Part shown: piece after piece, positions 1,037 through 57,525 of the stretch
Numbering within the stretch: the first letter of the stretch is position 1
Layout: each line of letters begins with the position of its first letter
NCBI GenBank assembly: GCA_041748855.1
Contig: JBGTCK010000038.1
Coordinates: forward strand, 14,514-78,513
Direction of reading: 5' to 3'
DNA from: Acidimicrobiia bacterium
GTDB taxonomy: Bacteria; Actinomycetota; Acidimicrobiia; Spongiisociales; ZC4RG35
Length of the DNA: 64,000 bases
Translations under genes and position numbers: made by a program
The notes under the pieces: generated by a model
Told to the model about the DNA's origin: nothing
The model's database searches: none
The model's input: only the letters and a program-made list of their open reading frames with translations

Positions 1037-3091
1037 ATGACGGAAATGATCCTGTATATCGCGCTTGCCGCGGGTCTGGCCTCGCTGCTACTGGCGACCT
1101 ACTACACCCGGGTGGTGCTGGCGGCACCGCAAGGCAATGAGCGAATGATCGAGCTCTCGGCTGCGATTCGAGCCGGGGCGATGGCCTTCATCCGCCGTGA
1201 GTACATGTGGGTTTCGGTATTCGTCGTAGTCATGGGCGCTCTCATCGCGGTGTTCCTCGATTGGGGCTGGCCGTGGGGAGCAGCTGCCTATGTATTCGGA
1301 GCGGTGCTCTCCGCGGGGGCTGGCTTCGTCGGGATGCGGATCGCAACTGCAGCCAACTCCCGGACCACGGAGGCGGCGCGTTCCGGTGGGATAACTGCAG
1401 CCCTTCCGGTCGCATTCCGGGGCGGGGCCGTCATGGGCTTCACGGTGGCCGGTCTCGGTCTCCTAGGCATCGGGTTGGGCTTCCTGGTCTTCAACCAGAT
1501 CCTCGAAGATCCCGACTGGGCCGAAATCATCACCGCAATCGGTCTCGGGGGGTCGTCAATCGCCCTTTTCGCCCGAGTTGGTGGAGGTATCTACACGAAA
1601 GCGGCTGACATCGGCGCCGACCTCGTGGGCAAAGTCGAAGCGGGCATTCCCGAGGATGATCCCCGCAACCCGGCAGTCATCGCCGACAACGTCGGAGACA
1701 ACGTAGGTGACGTCGCCGGCATGGGTGCGGACCTCTTCGAATCCTACGTCGGCTCGATTGTGGCCCCGATTGTCTACGCCGCCCTCGCCTTCGGCGGGCT
1801 TGCATTTCAAGCAGAGGCGATCATCTTCCCGCTTGCGGTAGCCGCCCTCGGCATGTTTGCGGCGATCATCGGCTCGTTCCTGGTGCGGGCCAAGAGCGAC
1901 GACGACCTTGCTGCTGCACTCCATCGCGGCACCAACTTCTCCCTCATCGCGACGGCGGCCGGGGTTCTGGGCCTTGTCTACTGGATCTTCGGCGACACCG
2001 CGGAAAACCCGCTTGGCCTCTGGATTGCAGTCGTCGCCGGGCTCGTCGTCGGCTGGTTCGTCGGGAAGATCTCCGAGTGGTTCACCTCAGACCACTACAA
2101 GACAGTCAAGGAAATCGCCCGCCAGGCACAGACCGGCCCCGCCACCGTGATCATCACCGGTATTGCTGAAGGAATGCGTTCAGCGGCCTTCTCGGTGATG
2201 GTGGTCGCGGCAGGAATCGGCGCCGCATTCTTCGCCGGCGATTGGGCACTGGGCGACGGTGGAGGAATCTACGGGGTCGCTATCGCCGCCATCGGCGTGC
2301 TTGCCACCCTCGGAATCACGATCTCCGTCGACGCTTATGGCCCGATTGCGGACAACGCCGGGGGCATCGCCGAAATGGCACACCTCCCCGCTGAGGTCCG
2401 CGAAGCGACCGACGCCCTCGACTCGTTGGGGAATACCACGGCAGCCGTCGCCAAGGGGTTTGCCATCGCCTCGGCAGCGGTCACCTCGTTGGCCCTCTTC
2501 GCCGCCTTTACACAGGCCGTCCAACTCGAGTCGATCGACATCACCAATGTCGAAACCGTTATCGGGCTCTTCATCGGGGGGATGTTCCCGTTCCTGTTTG
2601 CCGCGATGACCATGAACGCCGTGGGCCGCGCAGCCAACAAGATGATCGACGAAGTCCGGCGCCAGTTCCGTGAGATTCCGGGGCTGAGGGAAGGACACCC
2701 TGACGCCAAGCCCGACTACACGACTTGTGTGGACATCGCTACTGCGGGTGCTCTCCGGGAGATGGTCATCCCTGGCTCATTGGCCGTTGCCCTTCCGCTT
2801 GTTGTCGGCTTCATCGATGTCGAAGCGCTTGGAGGTCTCCTCGCCGGTGCCCTAGTGACCGGCTTCCTCCTCGCCATCTTCATGGCGAATGCAGGTGGGG
2901 CATGGGACAACGCCAAGAAGTTCATCGAGACCGGAGCCTTCGGCGGCAAGGGCAGCGAAGCACATCACGCGGCGGTGATCGGCGACACGGTTGGCGACCC
3001 GTTCAAGGACACCTCGGGGCCGGCGATGAATATCGTGATCAAAGTCATGACCATCGTTTCGCTGATCTTCGCCTCGGCATTCATCGGTTGA
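1037..3091 (+). CDS. hppA: membrane-bound H+/Na+-translocating pyrophosphatase
   Basis: 684-aa multi-TM ORF with the signature motifs GDNVGDVAGMGADLFES and GDTVGDPFKDTSGP. Confidence 0.95.
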   Translation: MTEMILYIALAAGLASLLLATYYTRVVLAAPQGNERMIELSAAIRAGAMAFIRREYMWVSVFVVVMGALIAVFLDWGWPWGAAAYVFGAVLSAGAGFVGMRIATAANSRTTEAARSGGITAALPVAFRGGAVMGFTVAGLGLLGIGLGFLVFNQILEDPDWAEIITAIGLGGSSIALFARVGGGIYTKAADIGADLVGKVEAGIPEDDPRNPAVIADNVGDNVGDVAGMGADLFESYVGSIVAPIVYAALAFGGLAFQAEAIIFPLAVAALGMFAAIIGSFLVRAKSDDDLAAALHRGTNFSLIATAAGVLGLVYWIFGDTAENPLGLWIAVVAGLVVGWFVGKISEWFTSDHYKTVKEIARQAQTGPATVIITGIAEGMRSAAFSVMVVAAGIGAAFFAGDWALGDGGGIYGVAIAAIGVLATLGITISVDAYGPIADNAGGIAEMAHLPAEVREATDALDSLGNTTAAVAKGFAIASAAVTSLALFAAFTQAVQLESIDITNVETVIGLFIGGMFPFLFAAMTMNAVGRAANKMIDEVRRQFREIPGLREGHPDAKPDYTTCVDIATAGALREMVIPGSLAVALPLVVGFIDVEALGGLLAGALVTGFLLAIFMANAGGAWDNAKKFIETGAFGGKGSEAHHAAVIGDTVGDPFKDTSGPAMNIVIKVMTIVSLIFASAFIG

Positions 3092-3150
3092 GGTCGGCAT
3101 TGGACGACCCTGCATGTAGGAGCTCTCGCCGCGATCAGGGCCGGCAGGGT

Positions 3151-3426
3151 GTCTCCTCCCGCCAGCGGCAGGACAGCTACGCGACGGGAGTACCGCAGCC
3201 CGCGTCTCTCCCTCCGCTTGCGGAGGGAGTACCGGCGACGAAGGAGCCGGGGAGGGTGGGAGGTTCCCACCAACGCTGGTTGCGCCGCGACCTCGCTCAC
3301 CCAAATGAGTTTCGAGCCCCCATACCTCCCCGCCCTCGGAGGGCGGGGAGGGACCTTTCCCCCATTCGGCTCCGCCTCTGGGGGAACAGCTTCGCGGACT
3401 TTCCTCCCGCAAGCGGGAGGACAGCC
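3151..3426 (+). repeat. mosaic hairpin-rich intergenic repeat, copy 1 (+ orientation)
   Basis: Shares ordered conserved blocks (CGCGTCTCTCCCTCCGC..GGAGGGAGTACC, GGGGAGGGTGGG..CCCACCAACG, CCCCC.TACCTC, GGGACCTTTCCCCCATTCGGCT.CGCCTCTGGGGGAACAGC) with 14246-14465, 38124-38426 and 47121-47362. It consists of several perfect GC-rich hairpins. Confidence 0.85.
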
Positions 3427-3449
3427 TTGAGCTTCGTCCGGGCGCGATA

Positions 3450-4688
3450 TTGAAAGAAGTCACTTTCATCCGCCACGCAGAGTCGGCCGCCAACAGCGCC
3501 GGGATCTGGAACGGGAGGTCGGACGGTCCGTTGAGCGAAGTGGGCCACGCCCAGCTCGAGGCAATAGGGGAGAGACTCCGCGATTCGGTCTTCGACGTCG
3601 TGATCTCCTCTCCGCTGGAGAGGGCGCGCCGGACCGCGGCAGCCTTCAGTGAAGATGTTGTGCTCGACCCCGAGTTCGTGGAGATCGACCTCGGCCGTTG
3701 GGACGGGTGGACCACCGAGGAAGTGCAGAGTCAGGACGCGAACGCCCTCCGGACTGCGATAAGCAGTCGGACCTCTCCGATGGGCGCCACGGGTGAAACC
3801 CTCAACGAGGCAGGGGAAAGGGTGCTCAATGCCGTCGACAAGCTGGTGGCCTCCCTGCCCGACGAATCATCTGCCGCAGTGGTCACCCATGGGGGACTGC
3901 TCCAGACGGTACTCCACCAATATCTACCGGGCGGATCGCATCGAGCCCACGCGTTTGTGGACAATTCAGCGATCACCACCGTCCGCTTTTTCGACGACGA
4001 CCACTCGAGGCTGGCAACTTTCAACGACACCGGCCATCTCGGTCCGCGCCCTTCCCAGGTTGCTGAATTCCTCGCTGCGGGCCGGCCTGTCGTCTCGCTC
4101 ATCCGCCATGGCCAGACCAAGGCAAACGTCGAGCAGCGGTGGCAGGGGCAGGGAGACTGGGACCTCGACGAAGTCGGCTATAGCCAGGCTGCTGCCCTTG
4201 GCTCTTTCTACGGGAAGTGGAGCAGCGTTTTCAGCTCGCCTTTGCAGCGAGCAAAGAACACAGCAGGTTTCGTGGCGGAGGCAGAGCCGACCTTGGTGGA
4301 TGGCCTGAAGGAGTTGCATATGGGTGAGTGGGAGGGGCTGACCACTCCCGAGATCGAGGCTCGCTGGCCCGACGTGTTGGAGGAGATCTACGGCAAAGGT
4401 GTCGATCTGAAACGGGGCACGACCGGCGAGTCGTGGGCCGAGCTGACCGCACGGTTCACGTCGGCGATCGACACGATAGAGCCAGCATCCGGCGAGCCGA
4501 CAGTGGTGGTGGCCCACGGTGGTGCGATCCGCGCCTACATCTCCTCGCTCACCGCCACGACCGACACCTACGCCGAAAGCCTTTACACCCCGCGCAATAC
4601 CAGTATCAGTCACGTCGCTCTCACCGATCGGGGCCCTCTCATCTTGGATTACGGCGTTGCGTCACACCTCGAGGCCCTGGAGTCATGA
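3450..4688 (+). CDS. tandem (two-domain) histidine phosphatase, PGM/CobC family
   Basis: 412 aa with a TTG start. There are two complete histidine-phosphatase domains, each with an RH[AG] motif (FIRHAES, LIRHGQT), SSPL.RA..TA and a distal THGG/AHGG. Confidence 0.85.
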   Translation: MKEVTFIRHAESAANSAGIWNGRSDGPLSEVGHAQLEAIGERLRDSVFDVVISSPLERARRTAAAFSEDVVLDPEFVEIDLGRWDGWTTEEVQSQDANALRTAISSRTSPMGATGETLNEAGERVLNAVDKLVASLPDESSAAVVTHGGLLQTVLHQYLPGGSHRAHAFVDNSAITTVRFFDDDHSRLATFNDTGHLGPRPSQVAEFLAAGRPVVSLIRHGQTKANVEQRWQGQGDWDLDEVGYSQAAALGSFYGKWSSVFSSPLQRAKNTAGFVAEAEPTLVDGLKELHMGEWEGLTTPEIEARWPDVLEEIYGKGVDLKRGTTGESWAELTARFTSAIDTIEPASGEPTVVVAHGGAIRAYISSLTATTDTYAESLYTPRNTSISHVALTDRGPLILDYGVASHLEALES

Positions 4689-10720: not shown

Positions 10721-11482
10721 ATGAAAATCGTTCGTATCAAGGCAGGCGATGACATCGCCTATGGAATCGCCGACACCGAGGGGGTCGAGATCTACCGCGG
10801 ATCGCCTTTTGTCGCATGGGAACCAACGGAGTCGGTGGTCCCCTGGGCCAATGTCCAGCTCTTGGCACCGGTCATCCCGACCAAGGTGATATGCGTCGGC
10901 AAGAATTATGAAGACCATGCTGCTGAGATGGGGACCCCGGCCCCGGAAGAGCCACTGCTCTTCATGAAGCCGGCTACTTCGGTGACCGGTCCCGACGCCT
11001 CGGTGGTCTATCCGCCGATAACCGGCGAACTGCACCATGAGGCAGAGCTGGCGGTGGTCATCTCCAAGGTCGCCCGCCATGTCAAGGCCGAGGACGCAGG
11101 AAGCTTCATCCTCGGCTACACCGCAGCCAACGATGTCACAGCACGAGACCTGCAGCGATCGGACGGCCAGTGGACCCGTGCCAAGGGTTTCGACACCTTC
11201 TGCCCGCTGGGCCCGGCGATCGAGACCGAGCTCGACCCCCTGGAGCGCCTTGCCGTCATCTGCAGAGTCAACGGGGAGGTCCGTCAGGCCGGCTTCACAT
11301 CGGACATGATTTTCGGAGTCGGCGCGATTATCGAACACGTCACCGAGGTGATGACCCTCCTGCCCGGAGATGTGATCCTCACCGGGACACCGTCAGGCGT
11401 CTCGGCCGTTGATGTGGGCGACGTGATGGAAATCGAGATCGATGGGATCGGAACCCTCAGCAACCGGGTGGTGAAGCGATGA
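10721..11482 (+). CDS. fumarylacetoacetate hydrolase (FAH) family protein
   Basis: [17 protein letters not shown]..., GTPSGV and a 253-aa FAH fold. The position just upstream of gltX matches the mycobacterial arrangement as I remember it. Its stop overlaps the gltX start. Confidence 0.85.
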
Positions 11483-12903
11483 CGGTCCGGGTCAGGATCG
11501 CTCCTTCTCCCACCGGCAATCTCCATATCGGCACGGCGAGAGCCGCCCTCTTCAACTGGCTGTATGCCCGGGCCAACGACGGAGTCTTCATAGTCCGCAG
11601 CGATGACACCGACACCGAGCGCTCAACGGTCGAGTACGAAGAGGGGATTCTCGAGTCGCTCCGCTGGCTCGGCCTCGACTGGGACGAGGGCGTTTCGGTT
11701 GGCGGACCCCACGGCTCGTATCGCCAGTCGGACCGCTACGAGCGCTACCGGGAAGTTGCTGCGCAGCTGATCGAGTCGGGGGCTGCCTATTACGACCAGC
11801 GGCCGGCAGACGATCTGGAGTCTCTGCGCCAGCAAGCCCAGAAAGAGGGCAAGCACCCCGGCCACTACATTCGTCGCCCCGATGAGGAGTACGGCAGCGG
11901 GGTCATCCGAATGTCGATACCTCAGGACGCACCGATTGTCTTCGATGACATGATCCGGGATTCGGTCAGTTTCGAGCCCAGAGATGTGGACGACTTCGTC
12001 ATTCTTCGCACCGACGGAATCCCCACCTACCACCTGGCATCGACGGTCGACGACGTCGACTACGGCATCACCCACGTCGCCAGGGGTGAGGACCTTCTCC
12101 CGTCGACGCCAAAACACATCGTGATCGCACGGGCCATGGGTGCCGGTGAACCGGTGTACGCCCACCTGCCGCTTCTCTTCGGGACCGACGGCAAGAAGCT
12201 GTCAAAACGCCACGATGCGTCGTCGCTGACCGACTTTCGGGACGCTGGCTACCTGCCTGACGCCGTTTTCAACTATCTCTGTCTGCTCGGGTGGTCGGTA
12301 GACGGTGAGACGACGATCTTTTCCCGCGCTGAGGCGGTGGCAGCGTTCGATCTCGCTGACGTCTCCAAGAACCCGGCAACCTTCGATCCGGACAAGCTGG
12401 AGTGGATGAACGGGGAGTACATAAGGGCGATGGACCCGGCTCAATTCAACGAGCTGGTGGTTCCGTTCGTCGAGGAAGCCGTGGGCCGTGAGCTCGAAGA
12501 GGCCGAACTCTCCCGTTTCGAGGAGATCTCGCCCCTGGTCCAGGAGCGGACCAAGCTTTTGCCCGAGGCAGGGGAGCAGGTGACTTTCCTCTTCACAGAC
12601 ATCGATGAATACGACGAGAAGTCTTGGGACAAGGTCATGACCAAGGACGGCGTCGCCGATGTCCTCGCTGCGGCGTCACGACGTCTCGGAAGTCTCGAGA
12701 CCTTTTCAGCCGGGGCGATCGAGGAGGATCTGCGGGCCATGCTCGCCGAAATGGAGATAGGCGTGGGCAAGGGCCTGCAGCCGATGCGGGTGGCCGTAAC
12801 CGGTTCTTCGGTCAGCCCGCCTCTGTTCGAGTCGATGGCGGTGCTGGGCCAGGACAAGACGGTCGCAAGGTTGGACGCGGCGCACTCACGTCTCACTGGT
12901 TGA
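11479..12903 (+). CDS. gltX: glutamate--tRNA ligase
   Basis: [23 protein letters not shown] (HIGH region) and KLSKRH (KMSKS). Confidence 0.95.
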
Positions 12904-12980: not shown

Positions 12981-13053
12981 GGTCCCGTCGTCCAGAGGCC
13001 TAGGACGCCGGCCTTTCAAGCCGGAAACGCCGGTTCGAATCCGGTCGGGACTG
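12981..13053 (+). tRNA. tRNA-Glu (anticodon UUC)
   Basis: Cloverleaf read by eye. The acceptor stem is GGTCCCG/CGGGACT. The anticodon stem is CCGGC/GCCGG with loop CTTTCAA. The T-arm is GGTTCGAATCC. No CCA is encoded. It lies directly downstream of gltX. Confidence 0.85.
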
Positions 13054-13107
13054 CAACCGGGCTGACATGCTGTCGGCCTTCTGCATTTGGACAGTCGAGG
13101 GTCAGGT

Positions 13108-13641
13108 ATGTCAGCACAATCGGTCGATCTCTACAACACGTTCCTGGCGACGCTCGCCCTGATCTCGCTGGCCGGCGCGCTCGGCCTCGTGGTCTACCGG
13201 GTGGCCAAAGGGAAAGAGGCTGCGCTCTCGTTGCTTGGAGACTCTGCATTGTGGTTGGCGTGGCTGGTAGCCGCGGTGGCAACTGGCGGCTCGTTGATCT
13301 ATTCAGGGTGGATTCACTTCCTCCCATGTCGGCTCTGCTGGTACCAGCGGATCGCGATGTATCCGCTTTCGGTCATCCTCCTCGTCGGTGCGCTTCGCAA
13401 GGAGCTGGTGGTTCGCTACTACGCACTCCCCCTCTCGCTGGCCGGCGCTCTTACTTCGGTCTGGCACTACCTGCTCCAGCTGAACCCGTCGCTGGAGGGG
13501 GGATCGTGTGACCCGAATAATCCATGCTCGCTCAAGTATGTGGACGTCTTCGGCTTCGTGTCGATCCCATTTATGGCGGGATCCGGGTTTATCCTCATCT
13601 CTGTATTGCTTGCCTTCTACATGAGAACTGAACGTGAATAA
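13108..13641 (+). CDS. disulfide bond formation protein, DsbB/BdbC family
   Basis: 4-TM protein with PCRLCWYQR, the BdbC-type CxxC. The ATG at 13108 is in frame with the ORF-track start at 13087. Confidence 0.8.
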   Translation: MSAQSVDLYNTFLATLALISLAGALGLVVYRVAKGKEAALSLLGDSALWLAWLVAAVATGGSLIYSGWIHFLPCRLCWYQRIAMYPLSVILLVGALRKELVVRYYALPLSLAGALTSVWHYLLQLNPSLEGGSCDPNNPCSLKYVDVFGFVSIPFMAGSGFILISVLLAFYMRTERE

Positions 13642-14245
13642 GAAACTTCTTGGAATCATCGGCGGGGTCGTCGGCCTCGCCCTAATCGTCCTTCTGGCAG
13701 TGGCTATTGCCGGCGAAGAGGAGGCTGACGCCTCGATCGGATTTGGCGATCCGGTAGTCACCGGCGACCCGCTCCCCGTCTACAACAGTGGTTCACCCAC
13801 CGACCCGGTGGTCGGTTTGCCCGCTCCCGAAACCGTCGGTGCGGACTGGGAGGAGAACGAGGTGAGGATCGAAGCGGACGGGCGCCCGAAGCTGGTCCTC
13901 TTCCTCGCCCACTGGTGCCCCCACTGTCAGGCTGAAGTCCCGGTCGTCCAGGACTGGCTGGATGCCGGGAACCTGCCCGACGATGTCGATATCTACTCGA
14001 TAGCCACACAGACCGACCGTCTCCGCCCCAACTGGCCGCCCCAGGATTGGCTGGAAGACGAAGGCTGGACCGTGCCGGTGATCATGGACGATCAGATCGG
14101 GACTGTAGGCGCTTCTTATGGCACCGCGGGGACCCCGTTCTACGTGGTTCTCGACGGTGACAACAACGTGGTCCGCCGGGTCTCCGGCGAGATCGGCACC
14201 GCTGGTCTAGACATCCTGGTCGCCGAAGCTCAAGCCGCGGGGTAA
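13634..14245 (+). CDS. membrane-anchored thioredoxin-like thiol-disulfide oxidoreductase (TlpA/ResA-like)
   Basis: N-terminal TM helix and an AHWCPHCQ active site. The GTG start overlaps the DsbB-like gene by 8 nt. Confidence 0.8.
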   Translation: MNKKLLGIIGGVVGLALIVLLAVAIAGEEEADASIGFGDPVVTGDPLPVYNSGSPTDPVVGLPAPETVGADWEENEVRIEADGRPKLVLFLAHWCPHCQAEVPVVQDWLDAGNLPDDVDIYSIATQTDRLRPNWPPQDWLEDEGWTVPVIMDDQIGTVGASYGTAGTPFYVVLDGDNNVVRRVSGEIGTAGLDILVAEAQAAG

Positions 14246-14465
14246 CAGTCCCCCGGAGCACCTCGACACGCGTCTCTCCCTCCGCTTGCGGTGGGAGTAC
14301 CTTCGACCTCTGAGGTCGAAGGGGAGGGTGGGGCGTTCCCGCCAACGGAGCTTGCTGCGCGACTGCTCTCAACTAGTGGAGTTCTCAGTCCCCCTTACCT
14401 CTCGGCCCTTTCGGGCCGACAGGGACCTTTCCCCCATTCGACTTCGTCTCTGGGGGAGCAGCCGC
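14246..14465 (+). repeat. mosaic hairpin-rich intergenic repeat, copy 2 (+ orientation)
   Basis: Same ordered blocks as copy 1. It fills the whole gap between convergent genes (stops at 14245 and 14475). Confidence 0.85.
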
Positions 14466-14474
14466 TTCAGAGAA

Positions 14475-14915
14475 CTAGTTCTCTAAAGCTCGGATCTTTT
14501 CCAGGCGTCTCACGTGGCGGTCTTCTCTGGAGAATTTGGCCTGGAGGAAGGCGTTGATCAGCTCCATGGCCACTTCCGATCCGATGACACGTGCTCCGAG
14601 GCAAAGGACGTTGACGTCGTCGTGTTCCACCATCTGACGGGCCGTGTAAGTGTCGTGGGCGACGGAGGCCCTGATCCCGTTGAGCTTGTTGGCGGCCACG
14701 GCCGCGCCCGCGCCTGATCCGCAGATGATGATGCCTCGATCGGCCCGGCCGTCGAGGACTGCGGAGGAGACTGCAGCCGCATAGTCCGGGTAGTCGACGG
14801 GGTCGGTGTTGTGGGTCCCCAGGTCGTAGACGGCGTGGCCCGACTCGGCGAGCCAGGAAGCGAGTTGGTCTTTGAGCGTGTAGCCGGCGTGGTCGGAGCC
14901 AAGTGCAATTCTCAT
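14475..14915 (-). CDS. rpiB: ribose-5-phosphate isomerase B
   Basis: [15 protein letters not shown]...ICGSGAG...; a 146-aa RpiB/LacAB family protein. Confidence 0.92.
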
Positions 14916-25072: not shown

Positions 25073-26275
25073 GTGATCGATTGGCTGGTCAACGGAGCTC
25101 AGAACGACACGTTTCTGACAACGCCCGAGGGCAGTGTCACCTATCGCCAGGTGTTCGACGCCATGGACGTCACGGTGACGGGACGGACCACGGTCCTCTC
25201 CCCGGAACCCGACCTCAGTTCGGTCCTGGCCATTTTTGCCGCCATCTCCGACGGCCCCCTCATCCTCAAGCCCCGGCAGGGATGGATCGACACCGTGATC
25301 CCCGAATCGGTGATGACTTTGCTGTTCACCTCCGGTAGCAGCGGCACCCCGAAGGCTGTTCCGCTTACCGTGGCCAACTGGAAGGCGGCAGTTGGCGCCT
25401 CCGCGGCTCATCTCGGCCACACCCCCGGGGACGAGTGGCTGATCGCGATGCCGCTCCACCATGTCGGCGGGCTCTCGGTCCTGTTCCGCTCTGCCTATGT
25501 CGGGGGGCGGGTCAGGATGCTGTCCCGTTTCGAGGCGGTCAGCTTTGCCGATGCGCTCTCCGATGATGTCACTTTTGCCTCGGTCGTGCCGACCATGTTG
25601 CGCCGGGTCCTCGACGTCGACGACCGCTCCTACCGGGGACTCAAGGCGATGCTGGTCGGCGGTGGGCCGATTCCGCCCGGCCTGCTCGAGGAGGCATGGG
25701 GGAGGGGGATCCCGGCGATGCCCACCTACGGGATGACCGAGACCTGCGCCCAGGTGGCGACGCTGGAGCCGGGCTCGGGGCTTGCCTACCGGGTCCATCC
25801 GCTTCCCGGGATCGAAATACGGATCGAAGGCGATGGGCGGATCGCCTTGCGCGGCCCCCAGGTTTTCGGCGGCTACCTCGGTGAGGAGCAGCGTGACCCC
25901 GACGACTGGTTTGTCACCGGCGATCTCGGCCGGCTTCACGACGATCGGTCTCTGCAGGTGCTGGGCCGGGCGGATGATGTCATTGTCACCGGAGGCGAGA
26001 ACGTAGACCCGGCCGCGGTCGAAGCAGTGTTGTGGGGGCTGGACGGTGTGGAGGGGGTGATGGTGGTAGGAATCCCGTCGGAGGAGTGGGGTAACGAGGT
26101 CGTCTGTCTCTTCACGGGCACGGTCACCGAATCCGACCTGGACCGGTGGGCCCGAGATCGTCTGGGGCCTTCCCAGGTGCCGAAACGCTGGATCGAGGTC
26201 AAATCTGTCCCGACCACCCCTCTCGGCAAACCCGACCGTGCGGCGGGAAGCAGTCTCGTTGGGAGACTGGGCTAG
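25073..26275 (+). CDS. menE: o-succinylbenzoate--CoA ligase
   Basis: AMP-binding motifs LLFTSGSSGTPKAV, TYGMTETC and TGDLG. It is short (400 aa) and lies next to menB/menA. Confidence 0.8.
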   Translation: MIDWLVNGAQNDTFLTTPEGSVTYRQVFDAMDVTVTGRTTVLSPEPDLSSVLAIFAAISDGPLILKPRQGWIDTVIPESVMTLLFTSGSSGTPKAVPLTVANWKAAVGASAAHLGHTPGDEWLIAMPLHHVGGLSVLFRSAYVGGRVRMLSRFEAVSFADALSDDVTFASVVPTMLRRVLDVDDRSYRGLKAMLVGGGPIPPGLLEEAWGRGIPAMPTYGMTETCAQVATLEPGSGLAYRVHPLPGIEIRIEGDGRIALRGPQVFGGYLGEEQRDPDDWFVTGDLGRLHDDRSLQVLGRADDVIVTGGENVDPAAVEAVLWGLDGVEGVMVVGIPSEEWGNEVVCLFTGTVTESDLDRWARDRLGPSQVPKRWIEVKSVPTTPLGKPDRAAGSSLVGRLG

Positions 26276-26682
26276 GACAGGTCTCCAGGGGTGATCGTCT
26301 CCAGGTCGGTGCGAGGGAAGTCGTCACCGAGGCAGACGATGGGGAGCCTGAGATCGGCTGCAAGGCCATAGACAAAACAGTCACCGAAATTGAGTGCGGC
26401 GGGGTGGCGTCCCTTTCCGAACCTCACGAACCCCCGACTCGCCAACCCTGCTTGCCGGTCGTCGACGTCAACTACCTGTATTGCAAGCGAGCGGACGAGA
26501 TGGTCGGCCGCCGTTGGACCGACCGGGCCCAACTTCTGCGTCAGGACTATTGACAGCTCGAGGAAAGAGCCGCTCGACATGAATCTGCGTTCTGTCGAGT
26601 CGAGTGTATGTGCCACCCAGCCCCCTACAGGTTCGCCGGCCACTATCGCCACGGCGGCCGAAGTGTCGACAACCACGTCCAT
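26272..26682 (-). CDS. vapC: type II toxin, PIN-domain ribonuclease
   Basis: 136-aa PIN domain with VVDTSA at the N-terminus and conserved acidic residues. Its start overlaps the antitoxin stop by 1 nt. Confidence 0.8.
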   Translation of the reverse strand: MDVVVDTSAAVAIVAGEPVGGWVAHTLDSTERRFMSSGSFLELSIVLTQKLGPVGPTAADHLVRSLAIQVVDVDDRQAGLASRGFVRFGKGRHPAALNFGDCFVYGLAADLRLPIVCLGDDFPRTDLETITPGDLS

Positions 26683-26927
26683 CAGTTGGGCAGCCCGTAC
26701 TCGTCATAACCGAGAATCTCGTCTGCTGGCCTGTCGTCGAGTACGGGGTATTGGGCGAACTCCTCCATTAGCCGACGAACGGCGTCACCAACGCTGTCCT
26801 TGGAACGCGTCCGCTCGAGTTGCTCTTTGAGGGCCATCACTATGGCCTCAGTGATGGATTTTCCGGTCAGCGCCGCAAGCTCCCTGGCGAGCTCGTCGGC
26901 CTCCTCGTTCTTGATACTAAGAGCCAT
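26682..26927 (-). CDS. vapB: type II antitoxin (VapB/FitA-like)
   Basis: 81 aa beginning MALSIKNEEADELARELAALTGKS..., the typical Rv0623/FitA-like antitoxin N-terminus, immediately upstream of the PIN gene. Confidence 0.75.
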   Translation of the reverse strand: MALSIKNEEADELARELAALTGKSITEAIVMALKEQLERTRSKDSVGDAVRRLMEEFAQYPVLDDRPADEILGYDEYGLPN

Positions 26928-37020: not shown

Positions 37021-38115
37021 ATGACCGAATTCCCCGAACACCATCACTCCACGCCAGAGGAGCCGTCCCCGCGTGAGAGCAAGTGGTTTGCACGGCTCCT
37101 GCTGATGCTGTTAGTCGTGGGCTCGGCGGCCGGGATCACCTGGTTGGTCGCCACATCTCCGCCGGAACCCGAAGTGGCCGCCGTTGAGGAAACCACTACG
37201 ACAACTGAGCCTCTCGAAGTTCCAGTAACCACCCCTCTCGCAGGTGTTGAGCCGATCGCTGATGCCGCAGAGAAGATTTTGCCTTCTGTCGTCCAGATCA
37301 GGACAGCAGATGGGGTCGGGTCGGGCGTCGTCTTCGGTGAGGGGCTCATTCTGACCGCCGCCCACGTCGTCGAAGGCGAGACAACGGTGCAGGTCCGGCT
37401 CGAGGATGGAGAAAACGTAGAAGGCACCGTGCTCGGAGGCACTGCCGAAGCCGATATTGCAGTGATCCAGATCGACCGGACCGATGTCCCGGTGGCCACG
37501 CTCGCCCTGGACTACACGCCCCGGGTCGGCCAGACCGCCATCGCGGTCGGATCACCTTGGGGGCTCACCTCGACTGTCACCGCAGGCATCATCTCCGCCG
37601 TCAACCAACCGCTGGGTTGTGCACCGGGAGGTGTGTGCAGATCGATGCTGCAGACCGATGCCGCGATCAACCCGGGTAACTCCGGAGGTGCCCTCCTCGA
37701 CCGCGAGGGTCGGGTGCTGGGGATCAACGTCTCGATCTTCTCCCTTTCGGGGGCGAACGATGGCGTCGGGTTCGCCGTGCCGATCGATGTTGCATATGAC
37801 ATCGCGCAAGCAGTTATCGCAGGGGAAAACATCGAGTTCGCCTTCCTCGGGGTGATGGGCGAGGACGTCACCACCGGCCAGGCCGGTGCTCGGATAACCG
37901 ATGTGATGGAAGGCGGTGCAGCCGCCGAAGCCGGCTTCGAGGTGAACGACCTGGTCATTTCCATCGACGGGGTCAGAGTGCAGGGCATCACCGACCTGGC
38001 TTCACAGGTCCGGACTCACCGCCCGGGAGAACTGGTCGAGTTCACCATCATCCGCGACGGAGCTGAGATCACCCTCCAAGCCACCCTAGGAGTCCGCGAA
38101 GACGAAGCCAGCTGA
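37021..38115 (+). CDS. HtrA/DegP-family serine protease with PDZ domain
   Basis: N-terminal TM helix, a trypsin-like core (TAAHVV, DIAVI, GNSGGAL) and a C-terminal PDZ domain. The arrangement of response regulator, kinase and protease resembles mprA-mprB-pepD. Confidence 0.9.
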   Translation: MTEFPEHHHSTPEEPSPRESKWFARLLLMLLVVGSAAGITWLVATSPPEPEVAAVEETTTTTEPLEVPVTTPLAGVEPIADAAEKILPSVVQIRTADGVGSGVVFGEGLILTAAHVVEGETTVQVRLEDGENVEGTVLGGTAEADIAVIQIDRTDVPVATLALDYTPRVGQTAIAVGSPWGLTSTVTAGIISAVNQPLGCAPGGVCRSMLQTDAAINPGNSGGALLDREGRVLGINVSIFSLSGANDGVGFAVPIDVAYDIAQAVIAGENIEFAFLGVMGEDVTTGQAGARITDVMEGGAAAEAGFEVNDLVISIDGVRVQGITDLASQVRTHRPGELVEFTIIRDGAEITLQATLGVREDEAS

Positions 38116-38123
38116 TTCATGCA

Positions 38124-38426
38124 AGGGGGCGACCCCTGATCTGCCCCCGGAGGCGGAGCCGAATGGGGGAAAGGTCCCTGCGCCCCCAGCGAGCGAGCGA
38201 GCGGCTGTTCCCCCGGAGGCGAAGCCGAATGGGGGAAAGGTCCCTGCGCCCGACGAAGGAGGGCGGAGGTAAGGGGGCATGAAACCTCTCCAAGTTGAGA
38301 GCAGACGCGTCAACGGAATACGTCGATCAACGTTGTTGGGCACGAGCCCCCTCCCCGGCTCCTTCGTCGCCGGTACTCCTCCCACCCTTCGGGCGGTGGA
38401 GAGTTGTAGTCGGAGGGAGAGGCTCC
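38124..38426 (-). repeat. mosaic hairpin-rich intergenic repeat, copy 3 (- orientation)
   Basis: The reverse complement aligns block-for-block with copies 1 and 2. The GGGACCTTTCCCCCATTCGG...GGGGG module is present twice, separated by a (GCGA)4 microsatellite. Confidence 0.85.
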
Positions 38427-38439
38427 TGGACATCCGCTA

Positions 38440-38648
38440 TGCTGGGTTTGCCCGTCATATGCGGCGGGTGTCTGAAGAGCAGCGAAGTCGGTTGGATCCC
38501 GGCGCTGTCCCGCAACTGTGATGCCTCATCTGAGGACGAGCCAGGTCGCCTGATCTCCAGACCACAGAGAAGTCTCGGATGAAGACGGACCAGGTGACTC
38601 AGGGAAGCCACCCCATCTTCATCCTCCGGAACACGGAGGATGTTTCAT
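38440..38648 (+). promoter_or_regulatory. cobalamin (B12) riboswitch with SD-sequestering expression platform
   Basis: The core GCGAAGTCGGTTGGATCCCGGCGCTGTCCCGCAACTGTGA (38485-38522) and the B12-box-like GAGCCAGGTCGCCTG (38538-52) match the consensus as I remember it. The hairpin CATCCTCCG-GAACA-CGGAGGATG (38620-42) buries the GGAGGA SD 9 nt before the ATG at 38650. The downstream genes are B12 uptake and adenosylation. Confidence 0.75.
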
Positions 38649-38649
38649 T

Positions 38650-39627
38650 ATGAGAAGGTATTCCCTTCTGATCTCACTCGTGCTGGTTGCCTCTGCCTGC
38701 GGCAGCGACGGCGCAACGACAACGATCGCTTCGGGCGTCACGACGACCACTGTCGGCGAGACCACGACCACCTTGGCGGAGACCACAACCACCGCCGGCA
38801 GCGGATTTCCGGTGACGGTGCAGGCAGCGAACGGCGCGGTCGAGATCGCAGCGATGCCCACTGCGATCGTCTCGCTGTCGCCCTCGGCCACCGAGAACCT
38901 GTTTGCCATCGGTGCCGGCGACCAGGTGGCGGCGGTTGACGATCAGTCGAATTACCCGGAGGAGGCACCAGTTACTGATCTCTCCGGATTCACACCGAAC
39001 CTCGAGTCAATCCTCAGCTATGAGCCCGATCTGGTGGTCATCACCTTCGATCCCGGTGATCTGATTGCTGGGTTGAACGCGGTCGGAATCCCAACCTTGC
39101 TGCTTCCTTCGGCAACTTCGATTGACGATGCTTTTGTTGAGATCGAGACGCTTGGAGTCGCCACCGGACATGTAGGCGAGGCTGCTGAAGTGGTGTTGGC
39201 CATGCAAATTGACATCGATGAGGTTGTCGCCGAGTTCGGTGAGGAGCTTGCCGGTGTAACCATCTATCACGAGCTGGACAACACCCTCTACTCGGTCTCG
39301 TCATCGAGCTACGTGGGTGAGCTTTACAGCCGCCTCGGCCTCGTCAACATCGCAGATGAGGCAGATCCTGATGGTTTCGGCTATCCACAACTCTCTCCCG
39401 AGTACATCGTGTCCGCCGACCCCGATGTGATCTTGCTCGCCGATGCGGCTTACGGGGAGTCGATCGACACGCTGCGGGAACGGCCAGGATGGGCGGAGAT
39501 GACCGCAGTCCAGTCCGAAGCGGTGGTCGAAATCGATCCTGATCGTGCATCCCGGTGGACTCCGCGCAGTGTGGAGTTCTTGCGAGAGGTCGCCGAAGCC
39601 ATCGCCCTTCTGGTGCCGGTTGGTTGA
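38650..39627 (+). CDS. ABC transporter substrate-binding lipoprotein, BtuF/FhuD-like (cobalamin/siderophore class)
   Basis: Lipobox LVASACGS and a Thr-rich linker, then a class III periplasmic-binding-protein pattern. Sits under the B12 riboswitch. Confidence 0.8.
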   Translation: MRRYSLLISLVLVASACGSDGATTTIASGVTTTTVGETTTTLAETTTTAGSGFPVTVQAANGAVEIAAMPTAIVSLSPSATENLFAIGAGDQVAAVDDQSNYPEEAPVTDLSGFTPNLESILSYEPDLVVITFDPGDLIAGLNAVGIPTLLLPSATSIDDAFVEIETLGVATGHVGEAAEVVLAMQIDIDEVVAEFGEELAGVTIYHELDNTLYSVSSSSYVGELYSRLGLVNIADEADPDGFGYPQLSPEYIVSADPDVILLADAAYGESIDTLRERPGWAEMTAVQSEAVVEIDPDRASRWTPRSVEFLREVAEAIALLVPVG

Positions 39628-44779: not shown

Positions 44780-46495
44780 ATGCTCATCGCCGGGACGGAC
44801 GTAGGATTGGCGCCGCTGCCGCCCAGAGTAAGGACATCAACCTTGAGCACGCCATTTGAGATCTCCGACCGCCTCACCGAGCAGTTCTGTGACCTGTCTC
44901 CGATAGATGCGACCGGCGCCGGTGTCCCCGGCCGTGACCATCTGTGGGACGACACATCACCGGAAGGGCACGCGGCCAAGGCAGCTTTCTATTCCTCTGC
45001 GATTGCGGAGCTTGCACCCTACCTCGGCCATCCCGAGCAAAAGCAGGCCGTTGCAGCGCGGGTCGTCTCGGCGGCGCTGCAGGAGCTTCTCCAGCGGTTC
45101 GATGAGGGCCAATACCTCGCCGACCTGAACCATATTTTCAGCCCTCCCCAGATCTTTCGTGACATCTTCGATCTGATGGACCCGAACACCGACCACGGCT
45201 GGGAGGCAATTGTTGCGCGGCTCGGATCGATCGGAACACCGCTCGCCGGGTACCGGATGTGCCTGGAGAAAGGCATCGAGACCGGGAAGACGGCCGCACG
45301 GCGCCAGGTGGAGTCGGTGATCGAGCAGAGCCGCTCGCTGGCCTCCGGCGAATCTCGATTTCTCAAGTACGTGGAGATGGCACGCGAGACCGGCCGTGAC
45401 GTGGAGACTATCCAGGACGCGGTCGACGAGGCTCGCCGGGAATATGGCGAGCTCGCCGATTGGCTTGAAGCCACCTATTTACCGGAGGCTGCCGAGTCGG
45501 ACGCGGTCGGGAGAGAGCGGTATGTGCGCGCTGCGGACTACTTCCTTGGCATCACCATCGATCCCGAGGAGACGTACAAATGGGGGTGGGACGAGGTGCA
45601 CCGACTCCGTGCCGAGATGGAAGAGACGGCGGCTGAAATCGACGCTGACAAATCCATCGAGGAGGTCATCGAGCTGCTCGACACCGACCCCGAGCGGTCG
45701 GAGCCGTCACATGAGGCGTTTGCCGCGTTCGTGGAGAAGATCCAGGCGGACGCGGTCGAGCAATTGGCCGGGGAGCACTTCGACGTGCCCGATGAATTGC
45801 GCAAAGTCACCGTCAACATCGCACCCGGTGATGGTGCGCTCGGCGCCTGGTACCACCCGCCTTCGGAGGACATGAGCCGTCCGGGGTCGATCTGGTACGC
45901 GCCGGGCTCACGCACCGCCATCCCGGTGTGGCAGGAGGTGTCCACCGCATATCACGAGGGTTTCCCGGGCCATCACCTCCAGGTGGGGACTGCGGTGATG
46001 CTCAAAGACGAAGTGTCACGGTTTCACCGGCTATTTCTCTGGAAGTCCGGCGCCGGCGAAGGTTGGGCGCTCTACGCGGAGAGGCTAATGGATGAGCTGG
46101 GATTCTTCTCCAATCCCGAGCACCGGCTCGGGTTGTTGGCCAGCCAGCTGTTCCGGGCCACCCGGATCGTCGTCGACATCGGCACCCAGCTCGAGCTTGC
46201 GATCCCCGATGACGCTCCGCTCCATGCCGGGGAGATCTGGAACTATGGAATTGCTGTCGACTACATGGACAAGGTCGGTCTCCAGGAGAGGGATGTGGCC
46301 GAGTCCGAAGTGAAGCGTTACTTGGGCTGGTTTGGCCAGGCGATCTCCTACAAGGTCGGCGAACGAGAAATCCTGAAGATGAGAGAGGCCCGCAAGAAGA
46401 AGGATGGTGCCGATTTCGATATCCGACTCTTCCACAGAGATCTGCTCGAAGCAGGAGCCATCCGGCTCGATCAGGTTTGGGACCTGGTTGTTTGA
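44780..46495 (+). CDS. DUF885 family protein
   Basis: 571 aa with the family hallmark HEGFPGHHLQ. Confidence 0.8.
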   Translation: MLIAGTDVGLAPLPPRVRTSTLSTPFEISDRLTEQFCDLSPIDATGAGVPGRDHLWDDTSPEGHAAKAAFYSSAIAELAPYLGHPEQKQAVAARVVSAALQELLQRFDEGQYLADLNHIFSPPQIFRDIFDLMDPNTDHGWEAIVARLGSIGTPLAGYRMCLEKGIETGKTAARRQVESVIEQSRSLASGESRFLKYVEMARETGRDVETIQDAVDEARREYGELADWLEATYLPEAAESDAVGRERYVRAADYFLGITIDPEETYKWGWDEVHRLRAEMEETAAEIDADKSIEEVIELLDTDPERSEPSHEAFAAFVEKIQADAVEQLAGEHFDVPDELRKVTVNIAPGDGALGAWYHPPSEDMSRPGSIWYAPGSRTAIPVWQEVSTAYHEGFPGHHLQVGTAVMLKDEVSRFHRLFLWKSGAGEGWALYAERLMDELGFFSNPEHRLGLLASQLFRATRIVVDIGTQLELAIPDDAPLHAGEIWNYGIAVDYMDKVGLQERDVAESEVKRYLGWFGQAISYKVGEREILKMREARKKKDGADFDIRLFHRDLLEAGAIRLDQVWDLVV

Positions 46496-47097
46496 GCAAG
46501 CAGTACTTCGATTTCGAGGACACTGCCGGCAGGGACCGGTACAAGCTGTTGTCCGGTTTGATCGTGCCCCGGCCCATCGGTTGGATCGGGACCCGGAGGG
46601 CGAATGGCACCTTCAACCTCGCCCCGTTCTCGTTCTTCAATGTGGTGTCGACCGCGCCCCCGACCGTCCTCTTCAGTGGGAGCTCGCATTCCGACCGGCC
46701 CAAGGACTCCATCACCCTGGCGGAGGAGTCGGGCGAGTTCACGGTGAACATCGTCTCCGAGGAGGTGGCACAGGCGATGTCGGTGACTGCGGGGTCATTC
46801 GGCCCCGACGACGACGAGTTCGCCATCGCCGGGCTAACCGCGGTTGTGGGTACGGTGGTCGAAGCCCCGATGGTCGCCGAGTCGCCCGCCAATCTCGAGT
46901 GCCGGGTCACCAAGGTGCTCGACGTGGGTGAAGGCCTCACCCGGATCGTCGTGGGCCGGGTAGTGGCGCTCCATGTCGAAGAGTCAGTTTTAGACGGCAC
47001 ACGGATCGATGCCCGCAGTCTCCGTGCAGTGGGACGGATGTCGGGCAACAGCTACATAACCACCGAAGACGCCTTCGAACTAGAGCGGCCGGTCTAA
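46492..47097 (+). CDS. flavin reductase-like (FMN-binding split-barrel) protein
   Basis: YKLLSGLIVPRPIGWI...NLAPFSFFN. The TTG at 46492 overlaps the upstream stop (TTGA). The ORF-track start is 46477. Confidence 0.8.
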   Translation: MSKQYFDFEDTAGRDRYKLLSGLIVPRPIGWIGTRRANGTFNLAPFSFFNVVSTAPPTVLFSGSSHSDRPKDSITLAEESGEFTVNIVSEEVAQAMSVTAGSFGPDDDEFAIAGLTAVVGTVVEAPMVAESPANLECRVTKVLDVGEGLTRIVVGRVVALHVEESVLDGTRIDARSLRAVGRMSGNSYITTEDAFELERPV

Positions 47098-47120: not shown

Positions 47121-47362
47121 TGGACTGTTCTCCCAGCGACCGGAGGGAGCCGCTGTTTCCCCGGAGGCGAAGCCGAACGGGGAAAAGGTCCCTGCCGGCC
47201 CAAAGGGGCCGGGAGGTAAAGGGGGCTGGGACTCGCCAAGTTGAGAGCGGTCGGTTACAAGCTCCGTTGGTGGGATCGCCCCACCCTCCCCTCCGACCTA
47301 AAGGTCGGAGGTACTCCCTCCGCGGGCGGAGGGAGAGTGGCAAGCGGAGGGAGAGTCGCGTC
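47121..47362 (-). repeat. mosaic hairpin-rich intergenic repeat, copy 4 (- orientation)
   Basis: The reverse complement aligns with copy 2 over nearly its full length. It fills the gap between convergent stops at 47097 and 47379. Confidence 0.85.
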
Positions 47363-47378: not shown

Positions 47379-48524
47379 CTACCGCTTGCAGTCGAACTGG
47401 AGCAGCGTCGGGTAGGGGTTGACCGCGTTGCCGTTCAGGTAGATGCCGAAGTGGAGATGCGGTGATGTGCCGCGGGCGTTGCCGCTGGTGCCGACGTACC
47501 CGAGGACCTCCCCGGCCGTCACTTTGCGGTCCTTGCCGTTGAATCCATCCATGTGGCTGCCGAGGTAACGGGCTCCGTCATCCCCATGGAGGAAGAACTG
47601 GTTGCCGCCGATCGATCCGACGATGTACTCCACGGTGCCTGAGACCGGCGCCACCACCGGCGTTCCCCTGCTAATGAACAAGTCGTTGCCTTCGTGATAG
47701 CGACCACCGGCCCGGGGAAAGCCCCAGTCGTTGAAGAAGCTGGCTGGCCCGACGGGGCAGATCCAGCTCGATCCGGACGGCACGTTGAGGCTTTGGCCCG
47801 ACCTGATCACATTGGGGTTGCTCAGGTTGTTCATGCTGACCAGCGTCGAAACGCTGGTCGCGTGGCGGGCTGCGATATCGCCGAGCCGGTCGCCGGACTT
47901 CACGGTGTAGGTGCCGGTACCGGGCGCCCCGGCGGCGACGTATCCAGGCCCATTGAGGAAAAGTCGGGCGCCGGTGTAGACGGTGTTTCCCACGATCCCG
48001 TTGGCCGTCCGGATGTCGGCCGCAGTCACGCCCTTGTACTTGGCGGCAATGCCCTCGACGGTTTCCCCGCTCTTGACTATGTGATAGTCGCCGCTGCGAT
48101 TGACTGTAGCCGGCGAGGACGCGCCGGGGGTGGTCGTCCTGGTTCCTGAAGACGACGAGCTTGCCGCCGGGACCAGGATTTCCTGGCCAATCAGGATCAG
48201 GTTCGGGTTGGCTAGCGCATTTGCATCGGCAAGGGTCCGCGCCGTGGTCCCGTAAGCGAGGGCGATCTTGCCCAGGGTCTCACCACGAGCGACTATGTGG
48301 ACCTGGTCGGTTCCGGGTATTACCAGGGTCTGGCCCGGGTAGATCAGGTTCGGGTTGGCCAGGTTGTTGGCATCGATCAGCTCGTTGAGCGAAATGCCGT
48401 TTTCCTGGGCGATGCGAGCCAGGGTGTCGCCGCGTTCGACGGTGTAGTCGAGGGAGAAGAGACCCACGAGGAGGGCGATCACGATGGCGACCACTGCTGC
48501 TCGGGCGCGACGGTTTTCAGGCAT
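47379..48524 (-). CDS. LysM-repeat (x4) M23 peptidoglycan endopeptidase
   Basis: N-terminal TM helix and four LysM repeats (Y.V..GDTL..IA...), then a C-terminal M23 domain ([22 protein letters not shown]). Confidence 0.9.
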
Positions 48525-56744: not shown

Positions 56745-56745
56745 A

Positions 56746-56872
56746 CCGCATCGATTTGCATTGTGCTCAGGGGGCCGGAATCCGCATCGATTTGCTCAGC
56801 GTGGGTTGTGACCGGGTTGCACTGTGCTCAGGGGCTCGAAATCCGCACCGATTTGCACTGTGCAAACCGTGG
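56746..56872. repeat. local imperfect direct repeats containing operator-like palindromes
   Basis: Three copies of ATCCGCA(T/C)CGATTTGC and three of TTGCA(T/C)TGTGC. The last forms the perfect palindrome TTTGCAC-T-GTGCAAA (56853-56867). Confidence 0.7.
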
Positions 56873-56881
56873 TTGGCGCTG

Positions 56882-57466
56882 TCAGTGGGCGGAACCGGCC
56901 TCCGCCGACGCACCCTTCTTGAAGTAACGGCGCGGCTTGCGCAACTCGTGTTCGAGGAAGCGGCCCAGGCCCACCGCAAGAAAGACATCTCCGAGACTGA
57001 TCACCTGACCATGGCCGGCGAGACGGAGCGGGATCAGGTCGCCAAAAGCGGGGAGGAGAGTGTCAGGGCCGAGGACCACGTGTTTGAAAGACCCGGCGAT
57101 ATCAGGGTCGGTAACCGTGAACCCGCTCGCCACCACGGCGGCTTCGGTCAGCACCGGCATCCCGCCGTTGAGCGAGATTACGGTGAAGTTCATCAGCACT
57201 CCGAACCCAGCCAGCCACATGCCGGGATGGTCCCTGTTGACTATCACCAGAACCAGGAGCAGCAGGAATGACCCCAGCACCATCAGGAGCCCTGCCGTCT
57301 CCGCCCAGTCCTCCTCGGGGAGCAGCCTCGTTGCGGCCTGGAGGCCGAAGCCGACGATGAGGAGCCACCACGATCTCAGCTCGATGTCGCCGAGGTTGGT
57401 CAGACGGCCGCCGCGAAGGACGGCAATCACCAGAGCCAGGAAGAGAACGAGCGCAAGCCACAGCAT
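56882..57466 (-). CDS. polytopic membrane protein (DUF5317-like)
   Basis: MLWLALVLFLALVIAVLRGGRL... with 5-6 TM segments. The resemblance to DUF5317 is from memory. The ATG at 57466 is in frame with the ORF-track start at 57544. Confidence 0.55.
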   Translation of the reverse strand: MLWLALVLFLALVIAVLRGGRLTNLGDIELRSWWLLIVGFGLQAATRLLPEEDWAETAGLLMVLGSFLLLLVLVIVNRDHPGMWLAGFGVLMNFTVISLNGGMPVLTEAAVVASGFTVTDPDIAGSFKHVVLGPDTLLPAFGDLIPLRLAGHGQVISLGDVFLAVGLGRFLEHELRKPRRYFKKGASAEAGSAH

Positions 57467-57525
57467 CGAGTCCGACGGTAATAGCCTTCGCTGTCCACCG
57501 ATAGGCAAAGAATGGAGAACGCGGC

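Follow-up and report, generated by a model that had tools for sequence, protein, structure and literature searches.

Repetitive extragenic palindromes (REPs) of Escherichia coli and its relatives, together with the bacterial interspersed mosaic elements (BIMEs) that they compose, are extragenic, hairpin-forming mosaics of a few motifs that lie at gene 3' ends or between cistrons and are co-transcribed. A BIME is a cluster of one ~35-40-bp palindromic unit in alternating orientation with short linkers, and REP is accompanied by the gene of a Y1 transposase (REP-associated tyrosine transposase, RAYT) that is often flanked by the repeats. Miniature inverted-repeat transposable elements (MITEs) such as Correia/NEMIS and Nezha are short, non-coding, structured and interspersed, are co-transcribed with their neighbors, and differ in presence between strains. 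REP also serves as a target for insertion sequences (IS) of the IS110/IS621 kind (PMC11208160). The BOX elements of Streptococcus pneumoniae (boxA-boxB(n)-boxC) are modular, intergenic, structured and co-transcribed, occur in close relatives only, apparently move little at present, and are regarded as parasitic by the authors who described these properties (PMC3049150). In Mycobacterium, the genus-restricted TRIT ('Tuberculosis Rho-independent terminator') is a single palindromic hairpin centered just inside the stop codon, present in ~150 copies at gene termini with conserved sequence and structure; it lacks a canonical T-tract, is largely bidirectional, and has been suggested to have a dedicated binding factor (PMC3152330). 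Here we analyze a 64-kb stretch of an Acidimicrobiia contig (JBGTCK010000038.1; the window) and report that four of its intergenic segments are real copies of an undescribed 200-300-base multi-hairpin intergenic repeat family belonging to one group of uncultured Acidimicrobiia.

The segments had been proposed as related repeats in a first-pass annotation, and reading and aligning them confirmed both their coordinates and their orientations (Table 1). With profile hidden Markov models built from the family, the four full copies were recovered (E-values of 1e-42 to 5e-51) together with an extra 3' module within copy 3 (38144-38181), and the rest of the window gave no matches. The window contains five occurrences of a 26-nt core, AGGGACCTTTYCCCCRTTCGRCTYCG, as opposed to an expected 0.00 in dinucleotide-preserving shuffles. 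The block order that had been given for the four segments proved correct, as did the 30-mer said to be common to copies 1 and 3 (31 nt, 100% identical) and the GAGCACCTC.A.ACGCG block in both copies 2 and 4. The elements had additionally been described as rich in GGAGG and CCTCC, and these strings are enriched ~8-fold, with 26.9 per kb in the copies versus 3.4 per kb elsewhere in the window. The boundaries of copy 1 (3151-3426) agree with the block conserved at the orthologous locus of a related species (~3158-3427).

Beyond the window, an exact-pattern scan of species-representative genomes identified 15 loci, all within two Acidimicrobiia metagenome-assembled genomes (MAGs), and a metagenome scan identified 16 further contigs with the core. 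These 31 further loci (loci carry L numbers below) uphold the view that the repeats are an interspersed family and not a local duplication. Profile searches located additional copies, which lack the exact core and were hence unselected, in the flanks of L001, L004, L010 and L026. The expectation of a high genomic copy number is only partly supported: the strict core alone is found at 7-8 sites per MAG; the true number is uncertain, however, and may amount to tens or possibly low hundreds. Of the 15 MAG loci, five are located at contig ends, as is expected because repeats break short-read assemblies. No match was obtained in viral contigs with two patterns, nor in PLSDB plasmids by distant blastn with copy 4. 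The inability of the earlier annotation to assign the repeats to a known element was borne out by Rfam: across the entire window the single match at gathering thresholds was a tRNA-Glu, and copies 1 and 4 returned nothing meaningful at E<=10, with the best sub-threshold scores on the copies reaching 9-18 bits against thresholds of 37-145. Literature searches on Acidimicrobiia intergenic repeats and on RAYT/REPIN in Actinobacteria found no papers.

The full unit spans ~190-280 nt and consists of hairpin modules (M1 to M7, Table 1) in a fixed 5' to 3' series with invariant unpaired linkers between them, an order that is constant across ~40 instances. From copy to copy, modules are lost, swapped between subfamilies, or tandemly duplicated. 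M1 is present one to three times per copy (multiple in L027 and L020), the M4-M6 block occurs up to three times in tandem (L030, L018), and L024 and L025 contain only the 3' half. A 'type B' variant carries GAGGGGACCTCTCCCTCCTACCTC, with M7 directly after CAGGGACCTT (L019, L027, L029, L032). Each copy also contains an open reading frame (ORF) in element orientation; a coding element was nevertheless rejected, as the modules differ by indels of 1-2 nt and the reading frame is not kept.

Comparison with the described systems places this family closest to BOX in its grammar. Both are built from ordered modules with variable internal copy number (here M1 1-3 times, M4-M6 1-3 times, and M6 doubled in copy 3), and this grammar, together with confinement to close relatives and slow turnover, makes BOX the nearest match; the Acidimicrobiia repeats differ in having more modules, interchangeable hairpins at some positions and constraint on individual orthologous copies, and given the different host phylum sequence homology is not expected. 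The likeness to REP/BIME drawn in the first-pass annotation is apt with regard to mosaic modules, extragenic position at gene 3' ends and between cistrons, and service as an IS110-family target. In contrast to the alternating palindromes of a BIME, however, the present repeats line up six or seven different hairpins in fixed order and single orientation with long invariant unpaired linkers, they share no sequence similarity with REP/BIME, their host is of an actinobacterial class as opposed to Proteobacteria, and RAYT was not found in the window or at the loci inspected. Similar to TRIT, the repeats are actinobacterial, terminus-associated, near stop codons and devoid of a T-tract, but they are 5-7 times longer, asymmetric, multi-hairpin and mosaic, and at copy 1 they lie in a probable operon. 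Collectively, we consider it probable, though well short of certain, that the four segments belong to a lineage-restricted, non-coding, non-autonomous interspersed mosaic repeat family that acts at the DNA level and is of the same general kind as REP/BIME and BOX.

Orthologous sites allowed the age of individual copies to be gauged. A species represented by L013, with ~87% nucleotide identity to the window over 8 kb, holds the same element in the gap between the H+-pyrophosphatase (PPase) gene and the histidine-phosphatase gene. Copy 1 and this counterpart are 92.6% identical over 3158-3427, and in the M1-M3 stretch 79 of 80 positions agree. Between the two species, identity at codon position 3 is 73-75% (synonymous sites ~26% diverged), while the intergenic DNA flanking copy 1 is 59-72% identical, with indels, and other intergenic regions of the alignment range from 46% to 87%. 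Copy 4 and its positional orthologue in a Lejia MAG (L003) are 82% identical versus 64-69% at codon position 3. Given that the orthologue of copy 1 is 93% identical at ~26% synonymous divergence and that the paralogues in the window are only 62-82% identical to one another, these findings show that individual copies are old and conserved well above neutral, without genome-wide homogenization.

The same gaps vary among related genomes, with empty or minimal sites in the more distant ones. At the PPase gap, further relatives located via the PPase protein form a gradient: L032 has a shorter type-B version, L033 has a ~70-nt mini version, and L034 and L035 hold unrelated short gaps, that is, empty sites. 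At the rpiB/redoxin gap, the element in the window has its 5' end at the redoxin stop codon, whereas in L037, L038 and L039 it is reversed, with M1 at the rpiB stop; L036, the closest relative, has a single M7-like hairpin only, and in L040 the two genes overlap with no gap. Synteny between the window and L003 breaks inside M1 of copy 4 (window 47309-47362; L003 ~1975-2050), where the adjoining gene differs, and the M2 module of L003 is of another type than that of copy 4. Together, these gaps show repeated gain, replacement and loss in either orientation, in addition to module exchange and breakpoints inside the repeat. The synteny break in M1 suggests that the repeats act as recombination or rearrangement breakpoints.

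Closer inspection of the rpiB/redoxin gap revealed two local features. L038 bears a degenerate M1 remnant by the redoxin stop codon (4600-4640), oriented as in the window and opposite to the main element, which it meets head-to-head at CAGAGAC; this pair may reflect two convergent elements or a replacement event. Separately, the rpiB stop codon is centered in a perfect palindrome, AGAGAACTAGTTCTCT (window 14463-14490; ~4430-4455 in L036-L039), that is kept in the four relatives read, L036-L039, with or without an adjoining repeat. In its position, this native hairpin at a stop codon recalls the mycobacterial TRIT.

The conservation of individual copies also leaves some room, on what we judge to be a distinct minority chance, for the repeats being more than selfish DNA, namely a domesticated lineage-specific signal, in which a portable multi-hairpin cassette with a putative host factor on its invariant asymmetric linkers would set transcript 3' ends, insulate convergent genes or organize the chromosome. 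Such a signal would explain the ~93% identity of individual copies across species ~26% diverged at synonymous sites.

Genomic context bears on whether the repeats operate as DNA or as RNA. The repeats occupy gene-free gaps, mostly those separating convergent genes; among the copies with scorable context, 14 are so placed, and the stop-to-stop gap is often wholly occupied. This includes, as previously recognized, copies 2 and 4, which fill the redoxin/RpiB and flavin reductase/LysM-M23 peptidase gaps; copy 3 is likewise flanked by convergent genes. None of the copies scored was genuinely intragenic; direct reading of the flanks showed the context of L020 to be convergent and the apparently intragenic match of L026 to be an IS30-like insertion junction. 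The flanking genes in the window are ordinary housekeeping genes. Many copies begin 0-25 nt from the stop codon of a co-oriented gene; the claim that every copy in the window starts within a few to ~60 nt of a stop fails for copy 3, for which the nearest plausible upstream same-strand ORF ends at 38619, ~190 nt off. At its 3' end, copy 3 comes to within 8 nt of the stop codon of the convergent HtrA-like gene. For copies between convergent genes orientation is uninformative. Between co-directional genes, however, the copy has the same orientation as the genes in copy 1/L013, L010 and the first copy of L001, and the opposite orientation in L008, L029 and L030, with L008 and L030 verified by reading the flanking start and stop codons. 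The occurrence of both orientations between co-directional genes, along with opposite orientations in one orthologous gap, points to a DNA-level repeat rather than a sense-strand RNA gene. GC skew is positive window-wide, yet copies 1-2 and copies 3-4 are on opposite strands; there is thus no sign of a replication-strand bias, although four copies are not decisive.

Covariation in the 3' half was counted for a specified structure over 27 distinct copies. Here 94.3% of cells form standard pairs, compared to 44-58% when the partners are slid, and 60 cells show double changes versus 23 +/- 4 in shuffles, with 0 of 500 shuffles attaining the observed value. One M6 pair is G-C in 13 copies, A-U in 11 and other in 3, and a second is G-C in 15, A-U in 11 and other in 1; these two nested pairs switch independently, such that all four combinations occur. 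In the M5 stem, all five inner pairs covary (columns 43-47 with 58-62). Folded individually, copies also outperform their shuffles (z-scores of -2.4 to -4.0). The signal is not confined to one strand, as mismatches are symmetric (9 G-U versus 16 A-C, where A-C equals G-U on the opposite strand) and the two strands have similar fold energies (-106 kcal/mol for the reverse strand versus -100.9 kcal/mol). Given this symmetry and the equally good folding of the reverse strand, the hairpins are under selection, though not specifically as sense-strand RNA.

These observations bear on the possibility of a structured non-coding RNA or a cis-regulatory element of the 3'-UTR, whose folded sense-strand RNA serves, for instance, as an RNA-binding-protein platform or processing signal. 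Compensatory changes in hairpins H5 and H6, the above-neutral conservation of copy 1 at its orthologous site, the many copies placed just after the stop codon of a co-oriented gene, and the single-copy folds that beat shuffles would all be in keeping with such an RNA. We nonetheless find it unlikely, as three independent copies (L008, L029, L030) are antisense to both co-directional neighbors, the same gap holds opposite orientations in different genomes, A-C mismatches are at least as frequent as G-U so that the sense-strand signature is absent, the reverse strand folds equally well, and modules are freely lost and duplicated. Additionally, a promoter scan identified no sigma-70-like promoter in the copies, which also have no Rfam match.

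We then considered how a DNA-level repeat of this kind might move. A Pfam scan of the ~66 ORFs of the window agreed with the earlier statement that it contains no transposase, as neither a transposase nor a recombinase was detected. A RAYT, Y1 or HUH gene was likewise absent among the ~66 window ORFs and beside the copies inspected in the loci. The gene flanked by two copies in L001 was considered as a candidate mobilizing enzyme and rejected, since by sequence it resembles a DJ-1/PfpI-type protein and not a transposase. A REP/REPIN-type element, mobilized by a RAYT (an IS200/IS605-like Y1 transposase) or another HUH enzyme that reads hairpins as single-stranded DNA, would account for conserved hairpins with short invariant flanking motifs, for the extragenic position and strand-symmetric stem covariation, and for targeting by an IS110-family element, as with REP (PMC11208160). 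It remains a doubtful explanation, because inverted doublets of one short palindrome are lacking and the modules are instead all different and always co-oriented, because no such gene was seen in the window or next to the copies inspected, because both orientations occur in one stretch of uniform GC skew, and because the copies are old and divergent as opposed to recently amplified.

Likeness to a MITE had also been raised in the first-pass annotation, and on this point the evidence was unfavorable, as terminal inverted repeats and target-site duplications were sought and not found. For copies 2-4, the first 45 nt compared with the reverse complement of the last 45 nt scored within the shuffled range, and the high terminal score of copy 1 arises solely from the palindromic M7 hairpin at both of its ends. 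The 30-nt flanks showed no consistent direct repeat, and the empty sites L034, L035 and L040 are too diverged for exact junctions. A DNA transposon shortened by deletion and mobilized in trans by the transposase of its parent would be short, non-coding, structured and interspersed and would differ in presence among related genomes, all of which is seen here. Unlike Correia/NEMIS and Nezha, however, these repeats have neither terminal inverted repeats nor target-site duplications that we could find, and a parent IS was not seen; both the IS110 element and the IS30-like one described below sit inside the repeat without ends in common with it, and copy content is highly variable. We therefore view a MITE as improbable. 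A last alternative, in which ordinary G+C-rich intergenic hairpins resemble one another by chance or were duplicated within a local segment, and for which only the generally high G+C of the window (62%) could speak, is refuted by the E-values, the zero shuffle expectation and the 31 outside loci with unrelated flanking genes.

The repeat itself receives insertions. In L022, an IS110-family element of ~1.48 kb (1823-3302) is inserted precisely in the conserved unpaired motif of the repeat. Its 409-aa ORF (2050-3279) matches Pfam DEDD_Tnp_IS110 at 1.5e-31 as well as Transposase_20. The empty counterpart, L025:1935-1955, reads CTCAAGCCCCCTTACCTCC, and the filled site reads ...GCCCCCT/AATGGG...GGTGTCT/TACCTCC (slashes at the junctions), with CT on both sides that resembles the CT core of IS621. 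The 5' non-coding end of the element contains GAGGTAAG, the reverse complement of the target CTTACCTC, a match as would be expected of a bridge-RNA target-binding loop. Because the element is inserted precisely in the motif and carries target-complementary sequence, the repeat serves as a multi-copy IS110 landing site, in the way that REP does for IS621 (PMC11208160). In L026 (~1000-1450), a reverse-strand ORF that starts near 1358 and is IS30-type transposase-like by its N-terminus abuts a truncated M6 (...CCCACCAACC/TTTCCCCCATTCGACTTCGTCTCTGGGGGAACAG); judged from these letters, it would be a second kind of IS inserted in the repeat.

Returning to the interspersed mosaic family that we favor, we propose that its spread would have been rare, through a mechanism acting in trans or through exchange among copies by recombination or gene conversion, and that local slippage and recombination would have remodeled the copies after spread. 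Retained copies were probably kept because stacked G+C-rich hairpins function in either orientation. They may serve as transcript 3'-end barriers, insulators or terminators between convergent genes and, at copy 1, as an intercistronic stabilizer, and the invariant asymmetric linkers are probably protein recognition sites. Copy 1 ends 23 nt before the next start codon, and the order of the PPase and histidine-phosphatase genes is conserved even where the site is empty; on account of this spacing and conserved order, co-transcription across copy 1 is likely and efficient termination there unlikely.

Several observations weigh against the mosaic-family interpretation or the role predicted for it. 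Neither a mobilizing enzyme nor terminal inverted repeats or target-site duplications were found. The repeats are likely to act as a structural element at transcript 3' ends, yet this role is a predicted one, and a purely structural, orientation-free role does not explain the strongly conserved asymmetric linkers. Canonical terminators were absent from the copies, and scans of both strands of copies 1 and 4 and their surroundings detected no terminator-like site with a hairpin and T-tract; moreover, copy 1 cannot terminate transcription efficiently at its position, as it lies inside a probable operon. Some of the apparent conservation could stem from gene conversion by other copies; the M2 types of copy 4 and L003 differ. 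Finally, a column-wise covariation test of the 5' half, in which 90% of cells are paired, gave no excess over shuffles. Because the pairing register differs among subfamilies, this half was examined by folding copies one at a time, which shows three hairpins in every copy despite differing M1-inner and M2 sequences.

Table 1. Copies of the repeat in the window and modules of the family
Feature	Coordinates	Strand	Description
Copy 1	3151-3426	+	Between H+-PPase gene (1037-3091) and co-directional histidine-phosphatase gene (start 3450)
Copy 1 modules, 5' part			M7-like hairpin ~3158-3177; M1 3202-3233; M2-M3 3235-3281
Copy 1 modules, 3' part			M4/CCCCCATACCTC/M5 3288-3348; M6 3346-3391; M7 tail hairpin 3392-3426
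M6 of copy 1	3346-3391	+	Nested hairpin; most conserved module of the family
Copy 2	14246-14465	+	M1-M2-M3-M4-M5-M6; occupies entire gap between convergent redoxin (13634-14245) and rpiB (14475-14915)
Copy 3	38124-38426	-	Between convergent HtrA-like gene (37021-38115) and 96-aa ORF (38619-38909)
Copy 3 modules			Orphan M1 half-arm (TCTCCCTCCG, without partner), then variant M1, M2, M3, M4-M5
M6 of copy 3, doubled	38204-38247 and 38144-38181	-	
Copy 4	47121-47362	-	Occupies gap between convergent flavin reductase (46477-47097) and LysM/M23 peptidase (47379-48524)
Copy 4 modules			Orphan M1 half-arm, then M1-M2-M3-M4-M5-M6 and tail hairpin
M1			Hairpin CTCCCTCC..GGAGGGAG, then GTACC
M2			One of several unrelated, interchangeable hairpins, e.g. 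CCGGC..GCCGG, CCTCCGACC..GGTCGGAGG, CCGGCGAC..GTCGCCGG
M3			GGGGAGG, hairpin GGTGGG..CCCACC, AACG
M4			Hairpin CTCTC..GAGAG, then TCTCAG
Linker between M4 and M5			Unpaired motif CCCCCTTACCTC
M5			Variable hairpin, then CAGGGACCTTT
M6			CAGGGACCTTT-CCCCC(R)TTCG(R)CTYCG(Y)CTC(Y)GGGGG-AACAGC; nested hairpin
M7			Optional tail hairpins ending ACAG(C/T)
Linker motifs			Candidate protein-recognition sequences: CCCCCTTACCTC, CAGGGACCTTT, GGAGTACC

Other features of the window were noted in passing. Between a convergent HD-domain gene (55482-56744) and a DUF5317 gene (56882-57544), positions 56731-56875 contain three direct copies of ~29-40 nt (TCAGGGG..CGNAATCCGCAYCGATTTGC) interleaved with the near-palindrome TTGCACTGTGCAA; these form a separate local repeat and are possibly operator sites. 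The tRNA-Glu (UUC) gene (12981-13054) follows the co-oriented glutamyl-tRNA synthetase gene (11479-12903) at a distance of 78 nt, and a PIN-domain toxin with an Rv0623-like antitoxin, a VapBC-type toxin-antitoxin pair, is situated amid housekeeping genes at 26272-26927.

Acidimicrobiia are abundant and almost wholly uncultured, and their non-coding DNA is essentially unannotated, such that a defined repeat family whose modules are clearly delimited aids annotation, accounts for contig breaks in MAGs of the clade, and serves as a clade marker. For an IS110/bridge-RNA element, the family also offers naturally occurring target sites, both filled and empty. Its symmetric, orientation-free placement stands in conflict with its conserved asymmetric single-stranded motifs and its old copies kept above neutral, a combination that pure selfish-DNA models fit poorly. 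If the repeats were shown to have a binding factor or to help form transcript 3' ends, they would be the second lineage-specific, sequence-defined terminator or insulator in Actinobacteria after the mycobacterial TRIT.

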